Of a stretch of DNA of 64,000 bases, positions 47,566 to 55,246 are shown piece by piece. Both the position numbers and the translations under genes were made by a program. The first letter of the stretch is position 1; each line of letters starts with the position of its first letter. This stretch comes from an uncultured archaeon (GTDB taxonomy: Archaea; Altiarchaeota; Altiarchaeia; IMC4; SCGC-AAA252-I15), in the NCBI GenBank assembly GCA_964587725.1, contig CAZPLO010000005.1, positions 1 to 64,000 on the forward strand, read 5' to 3'. Below the pieces are notes generated by a model. The model was given only the letters and a program-made list of their open reading frames with translations, did not search any database and was not told the DNA's origin.

Positions 47566-48246
47566 ATGGAATACACGATAGACACCAACATAGTAATCGG
47601 GGTCATCAGCAACAAAGACAGACTCAAAGAACCCGCACAAAAACTCCTCAAAAACCAAAAAAGCAAGTCAACACTTGTTCTGTCGGAAAACGTCCTCACA
47701 GAAACCGTTAAAACATTCAGCCAAAAAGCAAACCAGGCCGAGAAAAAAATCACGTCAGACCAACCCAACCTCCAACTTAGGTGGAGGGGAGTCCTACAGG
47801 AGTTGAAGGACATGCCAGACCAGTCAGTGAAAATAGTTAATGCGGACTTCCTGTTCACGGAATTCTACGTCACAGGGTGGAAGGACATAATGCCCGACGC
47901 AGAATTGAACGAGTTCGACGAAGCAGCCCTCGGGTGGAGGGCCGGCGGAGGATTCATGGCCGAATTCTTCAAACTATGCCGGCAGGCCACCGTAAACCAG
48001 GTGAAACGGGTGCTCACCCCAAACGGAAGATTCTACATCACAGAATGGGAGCAGAACCTCCCCCACACACTCGAATTCCTCGACGAAGCAGGGTTCCAAC
48101 ACGAAAGCCGCCCCCTCACAGACGAGGAAATGGAGAAAACCTGGTTCCTCCAAGAAGCAAAAAAGAAGCTCGCCACAGGAGAACTACCGCCAGAAGCAAC
48201 ACCGGTGAGAATCCAGGCCACCAAAAAACCAGAGGACAGAAGATGA
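47566..48246 (+). pseudogene. Chimeric ORF: truncated PIN/VapC N-terminus joined to a methyltransferase-like C-terminal fragment
   Basis: IDTNI...LSENVLTET (PIN) followed by DQSVKIV...VKRVLTPNGRFYITE (class I MTase C-half); neither domain appears complete. Confidence 0.5.
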
Positions 48247-48327
48247 GTATCTACCTCATACGCCACGGCCGCTGGCGTTCGCACTTAAATATTGGTTCGC
48301 ATATCATAGATGAAGGTTGGTGATTTG

Positions 48328-48528
48328 ATGGAGAACGTTACCTTGGATGTGATTAACAGGAATATCAAGCTGCTTAGGGAAGACCTAGAATACATTAAAG
48401 AGCATATGGTGGACATCGACAGTCTGCTGTCCATAGAAGACCGGCAGGCATTAGAGGAGGCTAGAGCAGAGTTCAGGGAAAACAAGGCCGTAACACTCGA
48501 GGAATTCGAGAAACAACTAAACCTCTAA
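48328..48528 (+). CDS. Putative type II antitoxin
   Basis: LSIEDRQALEEARAEFRENKAVTLEE; immediately upstream of RelE. Confidence 0.75.
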   Translation: MENVTLDVINRNIKLLREDLEYIKEHMVDIDSLLSIEDRQALEEARAEFRENKAVTLEEFEKQLNL

Positions 48529-48529
48529 G

Positions 48530-48784
48530 ATGTACGCGGTCATACCCGGCCCCAGAGCGAAAAAGTTTCTGAAAAAAGCGAACACCAAACTCCGCGAGAG
48601 ACTCATACCCAAGATAAAGAAACTCAGCCAAGAACCCTTTCCCCGCGGATGCCTGAAAGTAGTGGGGGAGGAAAACACATACAGGATAAGAGTCGGAGAC
48701 TACAGAGTACTATACGAAATAAAAGCTGAAGAAAAAGCCATTCTAATCGCAAACATAGACAAAAGACCAAAAGCCTACAGATAA
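48530..48784 (+). CDS. relE: RelE/ParE-family toxin
   Basis: AKKFLKK, P.P.G..K and YRIRVGDYRVLYEI motifs. Confidence 0.9.
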   Translation: MYAVIPGPRAKKFLKKANTKLRERLIPKIKKLSQEPFPRGCLKVVGEENTYRIRVGDYRVLYEIKAEEKAILIANIDKRPKAYR

Positions 48785-48790
48785 CACAAT

Positions 48791-49390
48791 ATGCCAGTCT
48801 ACCTAATCCGCCACGGCCAAAGCAGATACAACGTCGAAGACCGGTTCGGCGGAGACAGCGGACTAACTGAAAAAGGAAGGAAGGATGCCGGACGAGCCGC
48901 CGCAGTATTGGATGGTGAAACAATCAACACAGTATACTGCAGCCCCACACAACGAACCAGAGAAACCGCCGACATACTATTGAAAAAACACCCCGAAGCC
49001 AGACTGGAACCCGCAGACGAACTCCGGGAGATATCATACGGCGTACTCGAAGGCACGGTGGTGGGCGAACTCAAAAAACAACAGCCGCAAATGCATGAAG
49101 AAAGGAAGGAAGACAAGTATCTATTCAAGCCGCCGGATGGGGAAAACTACCAGGACCTCCAAGCCCGGGTCATACCATTCTATGAACAAGTCGCAGGACA
49201 AGAGGGGACGTACGTGCTCGTAACGCACCAGGCCGTCATAAGGACGCTGGTAGCCCACGTAACCAACATCCCAGACCAGATATTCCCGTACCTCGACCTC
49301 CCCAACGACCTAGCCTACCTGATAACAGAAGACACCGTATTATACTACCGCGGCGGGTGGCGGACGTTCACACACCACGAATTCAGGTGA
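48791..49390 (+). CDS. Histidine phosphatase (phosphoglycerate-mutase family)
   Basis: LIRHGQS, SP..R..ETA, LREISYG and LVTH motifs. Confidence 0.92.
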   Translation: MPVYLIRHGQSRYNVEDRFGGDSGLTEKGRKDAGRAAAVLDGETINTVYCSPTQRTRETADILLKKHPEARLEPADELREISYGVLEGTVVGELKKQQPQMHEERKEDKYLFKPPDGENYQDLQARVIPFYEQVAGQEGTYVLVTHQAVIRTLVAHVTNIPDQIFPYLDLPNDLAYLITEDTVLYYRGGWRTFTHHEFR

Positions 49391-49437
49391 AATGAGGACT
49401 TTAAACGTATTTATAGCGGGCGCTGGTATAGGTTAAC

Positions 49438-53583: not shown

Positions 53584-53637
53584 AGAAGGATTCTGGTTAA
53601 CAGGATTTATAAACGCACACGCCTGAATAGTGAGAAG

Positions 53638-54186
53638 GTGAAGCAGATGACGACGGAAGACAACATCAAGGCCGCGTTCGCGGGGGAAAGCCAGGCGCGG
53701 AACAAGTACGTGTTCTACGCGAAGGCGGCGCGGAAGCAGGGATACCACTACATAGCCAAAGTGTTCGAGGAGACGGCGTTGAACGAGGTCCAGCACGCCA
53801 AAGACCACCTCAAGATGCTCAACGGCATAGGAGACACTGCAGCCAACCTGAAGGACGCAATCGAGGGCGAACACTACGAGACCCTGGACATGTACCCCAG
53901 CTTCGCCGAGGAAGCCGAGAAAGAAGGCAACGAAGACGCTGCGAGGCTGTTCAGGAACATCGCCAAGATAGAGGAGAAACACCGGGACAGATACAATAAG
54001 CTGCTGAAGATGGTGGAGGACGGCACCGTATACAAGCGAAGCAAACCCATCAAGTGGCGGTGCAGCAAATGCGGATACCTCCACGAAGGCACGGAACCGC
54101 CTGAAAAATGCCCGTCGTGCAAGCACCCGAAGGAATATTATGAGCCGGCTTGCATGTGCTTCCAAGACGACTGCGACAGCTGCTAA
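53638..54186 (+). CDS. rbr: Rubrerythrin
   Basis: AFAGESQA, E..H pairs, CSKCG...CPSC rubredoxin domain. Confidence 0.95.
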   Translation: MKQMTTEDNIKAAFAGESQARNKYVFYAKAARKQGYHYIAKVFEETALNEVQHAKDHLKMLNGIGDTAANLKDAIEGEHYETLDMYPSFAEEAEKEGNEDAARLFRNIAKIEEKHRDRYNKLLKMVEDGTVYKRSKPIKWRCSKCGYLHEGTEPPEKCPSCKHPKEYYEPACMCFQDDCDSC

Positions 54187-54279
54187 AGCTTCAGCGCCTT
54201 GGAGGCCGCGTCTTCAGGAGATGCCTGCAGTTTAAAGTTGGTGGGGGCGTATATAAACGGGTAGTGGGTATTCTCTTAT

Positions 54280-54420
54280 GTGGAACAGGGTTTCGTGTCG
54301 ATTCCTAAGAGCGAGTACGAGCTGCTCAGGAAAAAAGCTGAAATAGCCGACGACGCAGTCATACAGCTTAACCTCAGCCTCAGCGACCTCAGACAGGGTA
54401 GGGTGAGCAAATTCCTATAG
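54280..54420 (+). CDS. Putative 46-aa antitoxin (MEQGFVSIPKSEYELLRKKAEIADDAVIQLNLSLSDLRQGRVSKFL)
   Basis: Hand translation; V.IP..EYE.L...SL.D...GRV pattern of small archaeal antitoxins; TATATAAA ~25 bp upstream. Confidence 0.7.
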   Translation: MEQGFVSIPKSEYELLRKKAEIADDAVIQLNLSLSDLRQGRVSKFL

Positions 54421-54720
54421 CGAGTGCAGATAATCTAAAAGTTCATCACCGTTCGCCAATACAAAATCGATTATCTTCTGCTGCTCTTTTTTGGACGCAA
54501 ACGCCATGAAAAGGATCTTCTTCCCCGCATCATCAACTAGAAAATAAAGTCTTTTGCTCGAGTATTTTTTCTCACGAAACCAGTTGAAATGAAGGGGTTT
54601 GCCTGCAGGGTTATCCTCCAACTGGTCCTTAATCTTATGAATCCACTCCCGTTCGTCCTTCGTTAAAGTCTTATACAGTTTCTGGAATGATTCAGTAGCA
54701 TAAACGTCGTACTTAAGCAT
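54415..54720 (-). CDS. RelE-like toxin
   Basis: TESFQK, L..NP.GKPL...FREKK...RLYFLV pattern. Confidence 0.7.
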   Translation of the reverse strand: MLKYDVYATESFQKLYKTLTKDEREWIHKIKDQLEDNPAGKPLHFNWFREKKYSSKRLYFLVDDAGKKILFMAFASKKEQQKIIDFVLANGDELLDYLHSL

Positions 54721-54760
54721 CAGTCAAGACTTACAGGCCTCTGGATAAAAATAGCTGCTG

Positions 54761-55246
54761 CTAAAGCTCCAGCGCCTTGGAGGCCGCGTCTTCAGCCGAC
54801 GCTACAACGATGCGTTGGATGCGCCGGTCGCCGGGGAAGGCGTCTTTGACCGTGTCGGAGACGCCGCCGCTACCTTTAACCGCCACAACCGGCTTGCCGT
54901 AGTTCAACGCCATGCAGATTTCACTCAAGGTTCCTGTGCTGCCGTTGACTGCGATGACCGCGTCCGCCGATGATACGACGAGGGAGTTCCGCATGTACCC
55001 TAACCCCGTCGGTATTACGACGTCTACGAAGGGGTTCGCGTCCGAGCCGTCGGAGGACGGCAGAATACCCACGGTGACGCCGCCCTTATCCTTAGCGCCC
55101 TTGCATGCGGCCTCCATGACGCCGCCGCGGCCGCCGCATATGAGAACGCAGCCGGAGGAGGCGATGTCAGCCCCGACACGTTCGGCCATCGCGCGAACCT
55201 CGTCCGGCAGGTCCGCGTCCACACCTATCACTGAAATGCGCTTCAT
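54761..55246 (-). CDS. LOG-family (TIGR00725-like) nucleotide-binding protein
   Basis: GGRGGVMEAA, VGILP, RN..V and GTLSEI motifs. Confidence 0.88.
   Translation of the reverse strand: MKRISVIGVDADLPDEVRAMAERVGADIASSGCVLICGGRGGVMEAACKGAKDKGGVTVGILPSSDGSDANPFVDVVIPTGLGYMRNSLVVSSADAVIAVNGSTGTLSEICMALNYGKPVVAVKGSGGVSDTVKDAFPGDRRIQRIVVASAEDAASKALEL

Follow-up and report, generated by a model that had tools for sequence, protein, structure and literature searches.

Minimal toxin-antitoxin cassettes flanked by long duplications of host gene ends in an uncultured archaeon

The sequence supports three loci in the window, the whole stretch of 64,000 nt that was analysed, as places where a minimal type II toxin-antitoxin (TA) cassette was inserted and a host gene end duplicated over a long stretch; for the third the TA assignment is tentative. 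The whole is best explained by recombination of the host between a recipient gene end and incoming DNA that carried a cassette beside the homologous gene end; the probability of this reading was put at roughly 0.55.

Repeat pairs and cassettes in the window

The three direct-repeat pairs of the original prediction, with 22/28, 40/45 and 38/39 identical positions, were recovered in a repeat search of the window and proved to be real, each lying around a TA cassette. The features are as follows.

48230-48270: left repeat 1; stop of an upstream chimeric ORF, overlapping the start of a phosphatase remnant (ATGA), MSIYLIRHG
48310-48528, plus strand: putative antitoxin of cassette 1, 72 aa; directly upstream of the toxin with operon-like spacing; no family match
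48530-48784, plus strand: ParE/RelE-family toxin of cassette 1, 84 aa; PF05016, E 6e-9, 36.8 bits (cut-off 23)
48778-48818: right repeat 1; includes the working start of the phosphatase gene (His_Phos_1, 48791-49390; PF00300, E 2.9e-43)
49438-49880, plus strand: fourth TA pair, from profile search; hicB 49438-49653, hicA 49650-49880
52332-52376: left repeat 2; joined to the intact exonuclease-like gene (51591-52349, minus strand)
52349-52610, plus strand: hicA toxin gene of cassette 2, frameshifted by one extra A within an A-run
52611-52844, plus strand: hicB antitoxin of cassette 2, 77 aa; PF15919, E 7.5e-10; stop codon abuts the right repeat
52843-52887: right repeat 2; remnant of the exonuclease start (MRESTF versus MLESTF) and of the region upstream of it
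54179-54224: left repeat 3; stop of the rubrerythrin gene (53638-54186) and a remnant of the LOG-like gene end (~40 nt)
54280-54420, plus strand: possible antitoxin ORF of cassette 3, 46 aa, convergent with the toxin; no family match
54415-54720, minus strand: RelE/ParE-like protein of cassette 3, 101 aa; language-model similarity only
54757-54802: right repeat 3; includes the working 3' end, with stop, of the LOG-like gene (TIGR00725; 54761-55246, minus strand)

Pair 1 (31/41, spacing 548; core 48243-48270 / 48791-48818) is the weakest of the three and was not caught by an exact 11-mer seed. Its copies match at 19/21 positions with an E value of 0.003 (local blastn-short); both start with ATG and code for M-x-x-YLIRHG. 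Identity and spacing are 40/45 and 511 for pair 2, and 42/46 (core 38/39) and 578 for pair 3. The flanking repeats can be shown to be ends of host genes. At site 1 a stop codon overlaps the His_Phos_1 start (ATGA). Pair 2 takes in 18 nt from the start of the exonuclease-like gene plus 27 nt upstream, with its right copy adjoining the end of the upstream membrane-protein gene. At site 3 the rubrerythrin and LOG-like genes converge, and their stops overlap (CTAA). Each duplication leaves its host gene intact, as had been predicted and as was read from the gene start and stop junctions at all three pairs.

The cassettes are low in GC, 0.47-0.53 kb long, and consist of only two small genes per insert. 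For pairs 2 and 3 the inner GC content is 0.44-0.47 against 0.59-0.60 in the flanks, and the dips are visible in a 200-nt profile. Family assignments from sequence cover the toxin of cassette 1 and both genes of cassette 2, where the HicA profile matches two frames (52418-52510 and 52497-52589). Neither of the small convergent ORFs of cassette 3 has a Pfam or NCBIfam match; its 101-aa protein lies nearest to archaeal RelE/ParE clusters of the ESM Atlas (0.97), which is a lead only. With the two genes also convergent, the assignment of cassette 3 to type II TA modules is tentative. Genome G008 has a homologue of the 101-aa protein (60% identical), and its version of the cassette also preserves the 46-aa ORF. 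The fourth TA pair has no flanking repeat, with only 8-nt matches between its flanks.

No transposase or integrase ORF was present in the window inserts, and the repeat search of the window revealed no inverted repeats bracketing the cassettes, so that the predicted lack of a transposase, integrase and terminal inverted repeats holds in both the ORF listing and the repeat search. A DNA transposon, IS element or MITE was rejected, since no inverted repeat brackets the cassettes and the direct repeats are long and variable in length.

Recurrence in the genome and across the order

The genome (1.56 Mb) was scanned with exact 11-mer seeds at a spacing of 200-3000 for pairs of at least 22 nt. Among the 58 isolated pairs that remained, those with a clear GC dip and without an N-run bracket TA cassettes. 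At least four further repeat-flanked cases were found in this genome:

Contig C3, 26240-26272 / 26922-26954, 33/33: ParD-like and RelE-like genes between overlapping convergent stops
Contig C8, 58-80 / 734-756, 23/23: ParE
Contig C37, 5366-5425 / 6103-6162, 56/60: hicAB
Contig C11: AAA_14/DUF4143 ATPase gene and hicBA, each lying between copies of a gene 3' end that is present three times

In C11 one ~85-nt segment was used by two insertions in succession, each of the three copies terminating precisely at the stop codon; in copy 3 TAA is replaced by TGA and the changes are mostly conservative. Genome G008 carries a similar array of gene end, cargo, gene end, cargo and gene end. At least seven different targets are used in this genome.

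When one fixed criterion was applied across the order, a repeat pair spanned 13/30 HicA loci and 8/30 ParE loci (4 strong). The housekeeping control gene Alba was spanned at 2/30 loci, both weak (17/20), and had no strong case (0/30). The difference between HicA and Alba was significant (Fisher's test, p=0.002; stricter cut, 5e-5). The pattern therefore recurs and is enriched at TA loci, as the original prediction had supposed. Repeats of the 27 strong cases measure 22-149 nt (median 45), some being shorter than 30 bp, and perfect repeats are frequent (111/111, 76/76, 33/33, 27/27, 28/28). The closed one-contig genome G024 has 3/10 further HicA loci spanned, and two of its repeat-flanked cassettes lie at the two ends of one SAICAR synthetase gene. 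A gene end is also duplicated around a mere ~60 nt without TA genes in G042, where a 6-nt gap in the second copy preserves the frame and the stop codon is retained.

Four homologous hicAB cassettes at four different targets were compared. The only part common to them is bounded by the promoter TATA box and the final stop codon, which are the limits of the cassettes, whereas the TATA box and the stop codon lie at varying distances from the neighbouring repeat. No shared end motifs or inverted repeats were detected among the four, and their flanking repeats are unrelated.

Chance matches or assembly artefacts of metagenome bins can practically be dismissed: three perfect pairs of this genome do flank N runs and are scaffolding artefacts (C2 6090, C11 13069, C22 2690), but the TA cases are free of N, many pairs are imperfect (40/45, 22/28, 56/60), the same arrangement occurs on contigs of four sequencing runs (one study, two runs being possibly the source), and the pattern is present in a closed genome, with no strong case for the control gene.

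Single-copy sites

Empty sites were found for analogous cassettes in congeners, at two loci on both flanks and at a third on one flank. The tRNA-Phe gene is present in one copy in G036, whereas G035 and G037 carry a partial tRNA copy, hicBA and the full tRNA. A 111-nt segment is single in G030 and duplicated (111/111) in G040. The third case, a 27-nt segment single in G046 and duplicated in G045, is supported on one side only.

For the three window loci no empty site was found in the genomes compared, the nearest being ~67% identical in DNA, and a metagenome scan yielded no close match to these loci. The exonuclease start is single-copy in G001, but upstream synteny differs from the window. 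Contigs of the four runs showed the occupied form only, with no joint and no circle; rare variants are lost from contigs, and this result weighs neither way.

Proposed entry by host recombination, or duplication in place

Because the cassettes encode no recombinase and have no defined ends, the insertion would be performed by the host's own recombination. DNA from a related lineage would enter the cell with the cassette beside ~20-150 bp of a homologous gene end. A circularised fragment would be joined in through one crossover (Campbell-like); alternatively, homologous pairing on one side would be combined with an illegitimate join. The old gene end would be pushed to the far side of the cassette and persist there as the second repeat copy. 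Selection would retain only those events in which the duplicated end keeps the tightly packed host genes intact, and the addictive TA pair would resist subsequent loss. The Campbell-type entry through a short host homology that had been proposed earlier is plausible and close to this reading. Recombination on 20-50 bp of homology is an assumption for these organisms, and the mechanism covers the entry of a cassette but does not account for the original arrival of a copy at a particular gene end.

The differences between repeat copies would favour an allele-like, homologous origin for the second copy. When read in the host frame, 11 differing codons are synonymous and 9 non-synonymous (p=0.004 against a 25% random expectation); at one locus (L036) all four differing bases are synonymous, and the remnant copies retain frame and stop codon. 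The arrays of C11 and G008 would point the same way. The donor arrangement, a cassette already beside the same gene end, was not seen in any case.

Duplication of the target in place is a possible but distinctly less favoured alternative. It would result from fill-in around a captured DNA fragment after a long staggered double-strand break, or from a replication template switch that leaves the chromosome and returns to it, carried out by host repair or a trans-acting enzyme, and the copies would begin identical and diverge later. The synonymous excess does not reject such an origin, because against the ~40% expected for a selected working copy beside a decaying remnant it gives p=0.13. The many perfect repeats would be expected of it; being perfect, they are uninformative on origin. 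Besides part of the tRNA, the duplicated tRNA-Phe segment seemingly takes in ~27 nt of intergenic DNA specific to the species, the doubled gene end around ~60 nt in G042 fits a cargo-independent duplication process equally well, and a short insert with a long duplication has a precedent (Lim et al., PMC3457768). On the other hand, the roughly sevenfold variation in repeat length is unlike any fixed-stagger transposase. Conservative changes in remnants with preserved frame and stop codon also speak against it, and the double use of the C11 segment with every copy ending at the stop is unexpected for random staggered cuts. No candidate enzyme co-occurs (Cas1, tyrosine recombinase and reverse transcriptase were checked). 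A staggered-cut mechanism retains some probability.

Integrative elements and Cas1

In archaea, site-specific integrative elements are bordered by att repeats that lie in tRNA genes or protein genes; CIMEs are derivatives without an integrase that are mobilised in trans. The cassettes might be remnants of larger elements trimmed to the TA genes, with the repeats as attL and attR, or integrase-less elements mobilised in trans; this was judged improbable. In the manner of archaeal att sites, direct repeats of 20-60 nt re-create the end of the gene that was hit; the 3' end of a tRNA gene was used in one event (G035 and G037), and tandem arrays at one site, as in C11 and G008, are typical of att-site integration. 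Moreover, addiction by post-segregational killing would shield a TA pair from deletion. Random trimming, however, should give a broad size range, whereas the spacing is 500-800 bp in 25/27 strong cases, about the size of two bare genes, even where repeats are perfect and the insertions therefore recent. The clustering at minimal TA size thus argues against remnants of larger known elements, which had been named as a possible outcome. Homologous cassettes occupy unrelated targets without a shared core sequence and with varying cassette ends. Insertions also lie at the 5' ends of protein genes and where convergent stops overlap. No integrase was found within 1.5 kb at the loci read, as judged from the ORF listing. 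The genome, 92% complete, contains a single tyrosine recombinase, located outside the inserts, to serve at least seven different targets. It gave no match to a reverse transcriptase either, and a link with reverse transcriptase, as originally considered, or with several integrases is not upheld. A site-specific integrative element as such was rejected, given the lack of an integrase ORF in the inserts and the unrelated repeats around hicAB.

Off-target integration by the neighbouring Cas1-Cas2 or by a casposase, with duplication of ~30 bp, is very unlikely. Cas1 (C5:42722-43558) and a CRISPR array (46036-46530) are located near the three cassettes, and the window repeats of 28-46 nt are of suitable length. 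CRISPR integration duplicates one repeat length. Other repeats reach 111-149 nt, and terminal inverted repeats are lacking. Cas1 was found in 11/49 genomes of the order and in 5/18 genomes with repeat-flanked cassettes, most of these being incomplete MAGs; the closed genome G024 has no Cas1 match despite three repeat-flanked cassettes, two with perfect repeats. The candidate role suggested earlier for Cas1-Cas2 is hence not reflected in co-occurrence, and casposon or Cas1-mediated integration was rejected on these counts. The casposon target duplication is given as ~14-15 bp (PMC6563490).

Relation to known systems

The route had been regarded as undescribed. It matches "insertion with long target duplication", known for bacterial restriction-modification (RM) systems (Furuta, Abe and Kobayashi 2010, PMC2853133; Mruk and Kobayashi 2013, PMC3874152; earlier, Nobusato et al. 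2000, Gene 259:99). The RM cases have long variable repeats, often across a start or stop codon, no mobility gene, and occur mostly in naturally competent species (PMC2853133). Both types of insertion comprise a small addictive unit without linked integrase or transposase. In both, variable long direct repeats represent a doubled target, which on the archaeal side is single-copy in congeners for analogous cassettes, and often span a start or stop codon, the target gene remaining intact. Where Furuta et al. considered repeats of >30 bp, the window pairs measure 41 (core 28), 45 and 46 nt, and the two small genes of each insert leave no other mobile-element gene. The type of event is the same; the cargo is not an RM system but ParE/RelE, HicA/HicB and a RelE-like pair. 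RM cargo consists of DNA-cutting enzymes, whereas the toxins of these type II TA pairs (RelE/ParE, HicA) are RNases, and the suggestion of Furuta et al. that the cargo itself breaks DNA therefore cannot apply here. The TA units are smaller (about 0.5-0.7 kb), and the repeats often shorter than the "order of 100 bp" of RM insertions. The hosts are archaea instead of bacteria; according to Furuta et al., whose study did not deal with TA systems, no archaeal case survived their selection, and the word "toxin" is absent from their text (PMC2853133). TA cargo and archaeal hosts are new relative to the RM precedent.

Strings of displaced 3' ends in T6SS/Rhs loci have been attributed to homology-facilitated illegitimate recombination (Kirchberger et al. 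2017, PMC5361080). A conserved segment of T6SS effector-immunity, Rhs and CDI arrays likewise anchors incoming DNA and the old end is pushed downstream; the C11 and G008 arrays appear to resemble such orphaned ends separated by cargo. There, functional toxin domains of one gene family are displaced at one locus. Here, unrelated housekeeping genes serve as targets, with an anchor of only some tens of bases and a cargo that has no relation to the gene targeted.

Integron cassettes are similarly minimal, promoter-poor and often carry TA genes; here the repeats copy host gene ends, not attC, and the cassettes are scattered at gene junctions instead of being arrayed beside an integrase gene. Archaeal integrons were reportedly described by Ghaly et al. 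in 2022.

Biological meaning

A rare and unexplained mode of gene insertion extends from bacterial RM genes to archaeal TA pairs. Beyond host recombination as the way of entry, it is tentatively suggested that the repeat-flanked TA cassettes may be mobile elements without a recombinase that have a life cycle of their own, although this was considered rather doubtful. Recombination between the repeat copies would free a ~0.6-kb circle composed of the cassette and one copy of the gene end. The circle, or a fragment of the same content, would get to a related cell and would re-enter at the homologous gene end by RadA-dependent host recombination over 20-150 bp of homology. If this were true, such "homology hitch-hiking" would be the principal route by which small genes for addiction and defence take hold in the compact genomes of the order, and it would provide the long-sought mechanism of the bacterial "insertion with long target duplication".

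Cassettes of the window

The three direct-repeat pairs that the original prediction had placed around toxin-antitoxin (TA) genes were confirmed by a repeat search of the sequence.

Direct-repeat pairs of the window and their targets (matching bases/repeat length)
48230-48270 / 48778-48818: pair 1, 31/41 (core in the original prediction, 22/28); ATGA stop/start overlap ahead of a His_Phos_1 phosphatase gene
52332-52376 / 52843-52887: pair 2, 40/45; start of an exonuclease-like gene
54179-54224 / 54757-54802: pair 3, 42/46 (core 38/39); convergent rubrerythrin and LOG-like TIGR00725 genes with overlapping stops (CTAA)

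The DNA between each pair was 0.47-0.53 kb long and lower in GC, with values for pairs 2 and 3 of 0.44-0.47 inside versus 0.59-0.60 in the flanks. All three targets were tight gene junctions. Each repeat copy completes a different neighbouring gene and therefore no host gene was lost, in agreement with the claim that host genes are left intact. No terminal inverted repeats bracketing the cassettes were found in the repeat search, as had also been noted beforehand.

Cassette 1 carries a ParE/RelE toxin gene and a gene for a 72-aa partner without family assignment. Cassette 2 carries hicA and hicB; one extra A in an A-run of hicA (52480-52520) splits the toxin gene, and hicB is intact. The homologous hicA of the relative G011 (L047, G011:C14, about 1441-1610) is broken too, at a different alignment column, and hicA of the relative G037 is truncated; decay seems to strike toxin genes first. 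Cassette 3 contains two small convergent ORFs with no match in Pfam or NCBIfam. For the 101-aa ORF, the closest clusters of the ESM Atlas were archaeal RelE/ParE ones (0.97), a model-based assignment taken as a lead only. A homologue of this putative toxin was present in 2 of the 49 genomes of the order, and a wider scan of genome contigs returned only the locus in one of these relatives, G008, again.

A 424-aa ORF without Pfam match (52891-54165, minus strand) overlaps the rubrerythrin gene on the opposite strand. The true start of the gene listed as this ORF is probably an internal Met codon near 53560.

Recurrence within the genome

The assembly (1.56 Mb, 48 contigs, 92% complete) was scanned for direct repeats at a spacing of 200-3000 bp, keeping isolated pairs of at least 22 nt. 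Of these, 58 remained, and the pairs with a clear GC dip and without an N-run were TA cassettes.

Repeat-flanked cassettes on other contigs of the genome
C3 26240-26272 / 26922-26954: 33/33; ParD-like and RelE-like genes, inserted between convergent PhoU-domain and beta-CASP genes with overlapping stops
C8 58-80 / 734-756: 23/23; ParE toxin
C37 5366-5425 / 6103-6162: 56/60; hicAB at the 3' end of an amine-oxidase-like gene
C11 145-234, 1637-1726, 2237-2316: last ~85 nt of a surface-protein gene in three copies

On C11, an AAA_14/DUF4143 ATPase gene and a hicBA pair lie between these copies, each of which terminates exactly on the stop codon. Other TA-like loci of this genome had no flanking repeat, including the fourth TA pair of the window (49438-49880) and a unit of a 234-aa ORF plus a PIN segment (46861-47800).

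Several repeats were rejected. Perfect repeats around N runs were scaffolding artefacts (C2 6090-6367, C11 13069-13322, C22 2690-2945). The pair C5 78001-78333 / 80338-80670 (333/333), on the contig of the window, represents paralogous surface-protein genes with no insertion. At C8 33446 / 34345, an Mrr-like ORF is flanked by what are probably two paralogues with a tRNA-binding domain, likewise with no insertion.

The ORF at 47566-48246 is chimeric: its first ~70 residues gave a weak PIN match and the remainder resembles the C-terminal part of another enzyme, and GC rises near 47800 from ~0.45 to ~0.54. This suggests that the 234-aa ORF (46861-47565) and the PIN segment are a further low-GC insertion, which truncated a host gene.

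Recurrence across the order

The order was represented by 49 species-level genomes. It is archaeal, on the grounds of Alba in 36 of them and of ribosomal protein L35Ae. For each of three Pfam families, the best-scoring 30 matches, spread over the genomes, were surveyed. A locus was counted as spanned if a repeat of at least 20 nt and at least 80% identity, at a spacing of 300-1500 bp, had its two copies on opposite sides of the gene match.

Loci spanned by direct repeats among the 30 best matches per family
HicA: 13/30
ParE: 8/30, four of them strong (26/29, 129/135, 23/23, 40/42)
Alba (control): 2/30, both 17/20

Such repeats were thus enriched at TA loci, as the original prediction required, with p=0.002 for HicA versus Alba (Fisher's exact test) and p=5e-5 under a stricter cut (at least 20 matches, at least 85% identity); the loci are partly dependent, L027 and L042 representing one ancestral event, and ParE alone did not differ significantly from the control (p=0.08). 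In G024, a relative whose genome is closed in one contig, 3 of 10 further HicA matches were spanned (27/27, 101/106, 28/28) and none of four further ParE matches; the pattern is therefore no binning or assembly artefact. One SAICAR synthetase gene of this genome (L133, G024:C1:366316-370725) has a repeat-flanked hicAB at either end (5', 101/106; 3', 27/27).

Repeat length in 27 strong cases was 22-149 nt (median 45), and the spacing was 500-800 bp in 25 of them. The cargo is sometimes non-TA: at L129 (G024:C1:683078-686248) a 151-aa ORF without Pfam match lies between 94/96 repeats (64-159 / 1042-1137) formed by the 3' end of a gene, and the ATPase gene of C11 is another such cargo. Judged by eye, the end motif of the gene duplicated at L129 resembles that of a class II aminoacyl-tRNA synthetase. 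The observation made in the window is confirmed and proves general in this archaeal order.

Single-copy sites in congeners

Sites with one copy and no cassette were expected in relatives and were found, for analogous cassettes of other genomes, in two comparisons; a third supports the expectation at the right flank only. In the congeners G035 and G037, a hicBA cassette is located between a partial and a full tRNA-Phe gene, beside the L35Ae gene, whereas G036 has a single tRNA-Phe gene with its native spacer and no cassette. Because the spacer ahead of the full tRNA gene in G037 matches that of G036, the duplicated segment seems to extend ~27 nt beyond the tRNA. In G040, hicBA lies between two copies of the 5' region of a gene (111/111); G030 has this segment once, and a homologous hicBA on a different contig. 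The 27-nt segment duplicated in G045 occurs once in G046, where the left flank is not common to both.

At the site of the G041 cassette, its sister species G042 (L122, G042:C68, about 2650-3000) has the gene 3' end twice with no TA genes. The copies, ~125 nt long and 76% identical, differ by an in-frame gap of 6 nt and retain the stop codon. They are parted by just ~60 nt, which contain a GC-rich hairpin and lack any cargo gene; G041 has hicBA there. Usable flanks were found neither in G025 (for L036) nor in G026, G031 and G032 (for L018).

No empty site was found for the window loci: a DNA search against 31 relatives gave a nearest genome of only ~67% identity with broken synteny. A metagenome scan with the exonuclease protein yielded three marginal matches over 22 residues. 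The exonuclease locus of G001, another relative, lacks hicAB, but its upstream neighbour differs. In contigs from four runs of one study, two of which may be where this DNA came from, every run has the cassettes, and no joints of excised, circular or empty forms were seen; rare forms drop out of contigs, so this result counts neither for nor against such forms.

The functional tRNA-Phe gene of G037 (L042 1737-1834), labelled tRNA-Ser by ARAGORN, has a 22-nt insert at the anticodon loop, likely an intron, which is absent from the partial copy (L042 1055-1110) and from the tRNA-Phe genes of three congeners. Upstream of hicB, L042 1168-1245 is a partly palindromic sequence of ~75 nt. It occurs in 9-18 copies per genome in one genus (G035, G036, G037), in both orientations and also next to non-TA genes, and is a dispersed intergenic repeat.

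Cassette ends and mechanism

Homologous hicAB cassettes occupy four unrelated places, in the window and in the relatives G045, G020 and G011. All that they have in common starts at a TATA-like box and ends with the stop codon of hicB; 3 to about 40 nt separate the repeat from the TATA box, and 0 to about 20 nt the stop codon from the repeat. The G040 junction falls inside the 3' end of hicA. The cassettes lack defined ends, so that a site-specific recombinase would find no common core and a transposase no inverted repeat. When 19 cassettes were compared by blastn with one another and with the whole genome, no near-identical copy turned up at a different site, and the best-matching unrelated pairs shared 66-71% identity. 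The comparisons establish an insertion with duplication of a single-copy target, of variable length and with no element-encoded enzyme, and a preference for, or survival at, gene ends.

Three loci with non-coding-looking repeats matched no Rfam family. At L016 (G008:C8; 11551-11604, 12680-12747, 13258-13431) and L064 (G012), from genomes of the same family, the cassette is flanked by a local repeat with a recurring CTAAACG-like motif and no Rfam match; instead of a gene end, this repeat may be a dispersed non-coding element.

Judged from its sequence, the second repeat copy often resembles an allele and not a decaying duplicate. At L036, four of four differing bases are synonymous. In C11 copy 3 and in the second copy of G042, changes are mostly conservative, and both copies retain the reading frame and a stop codon. 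In C11 and G008, gene ends alternate with cargo (three ends around two cargoes), and these arrays resemble the displaced 3' ends of T6SS and Rhs loci, which are attributed to homology-facilitated illegitimate recombination (PMC5361080). Because of these allele-like copies and arrays, we favour an entry of foreign DNA in which a cassette would arrive adjoining a short homologous gene end. This DNA would either circularise and integrate through one crossover, or pair on one side and be joined illegitimately.

Duplication of the target in place is given about one chance in four. A codon-position test of the repeat copies in the host frame counted 11 synonymous versus 9 non-synonymous codons, which hints at an allele-like second copy yet does not separate the two main models, and against a synonymous expectation of 40% the counts are compatible with duplication in place (p=0.13). 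Trimmed remnants of large integrated elements, named beforehand as a possible refutation, are argued against by the narrow spacing, which corresponds to the bare size of two genes even where repeats are perfect. Cas1-Cas2, put forward as a speculative candidate, is unsupported: Cas1 was detected in 11 of 49 genomes and in 5 of the 18 with strong cases, and was not found in closed G024. A role for a reverse transcriptase or for several integrases is likewise unsupported: this 92%-complete genome gave one tyrosine recombinase and no match to a reverse transcriptase.

In the window, Cas1 is encoded at 42722-43558 and a CRISPR array with a 66-nt period lies at 46036-46530. Its units 46238-46303 and 46304-46369 are 100% identical, one spacer thus occurring twice in tandem.

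Since the cargo consists of RNase toxins, the process must be driven by the host independently of the cargo, which implies that no DNA-cutting cargo is needed.

Relation to known insertions

To our knowledge, the movement of chromosomal TA pairs has never been settled. In the review literature, such pairs are described as highly mobile with no mechanism named (Makarova et al. 2009, PMC2701414). A class of insertions with long target duplication was defined by Furuta, Abe and Kobayashi (PMC2853133) and was known from a few dozen bacterial restriction-modification (RM) loci. According to these authors, the inserts lack any other mobile element, the repeats often span translation starts or stops, the target gene stays intact, the majority of cases come from naturally competent bacteria, and no archaeal case survived selection; DNA double-strand breakage by RM systems is suggested as common cause, and the word "toxin" is absent (PMC2853133). 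Lim et al. (PMC3457768) describe a small insert accompanied by a long duplicated segment.

This class is the only described mode that fits; here, however, the cargo is RNase-type TA pairs and the hosts are Archaea. The term "undescribed route" in the original prediction was therefore too strong, as this kind of insertion was already described for RM systems (PMC2853133), and its reading holds in part, as a real insertion mode without a mobility gene of its own. In the openly searchable literature, no paper was found that describes TA cassettes inserted with long target duplication, be it in archaea or in other organisms. New are the cargo, the domain, the frequency and the implied dispensability of a DNA-cutting cargo.

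With many independent events, single-copy sites in congeners, arrays and a closed genome, the mechanism could become testable in this order. The footprint accounts for small "remnant" ORFs at gene junctions, and a GC dip with a duplicated gene end offers annotators a mark for recent gene gain in compact genomes. Among the best 30 matches, about 40% of the HicA loci examined carry this footprint, which is thus common in the archaeal order.
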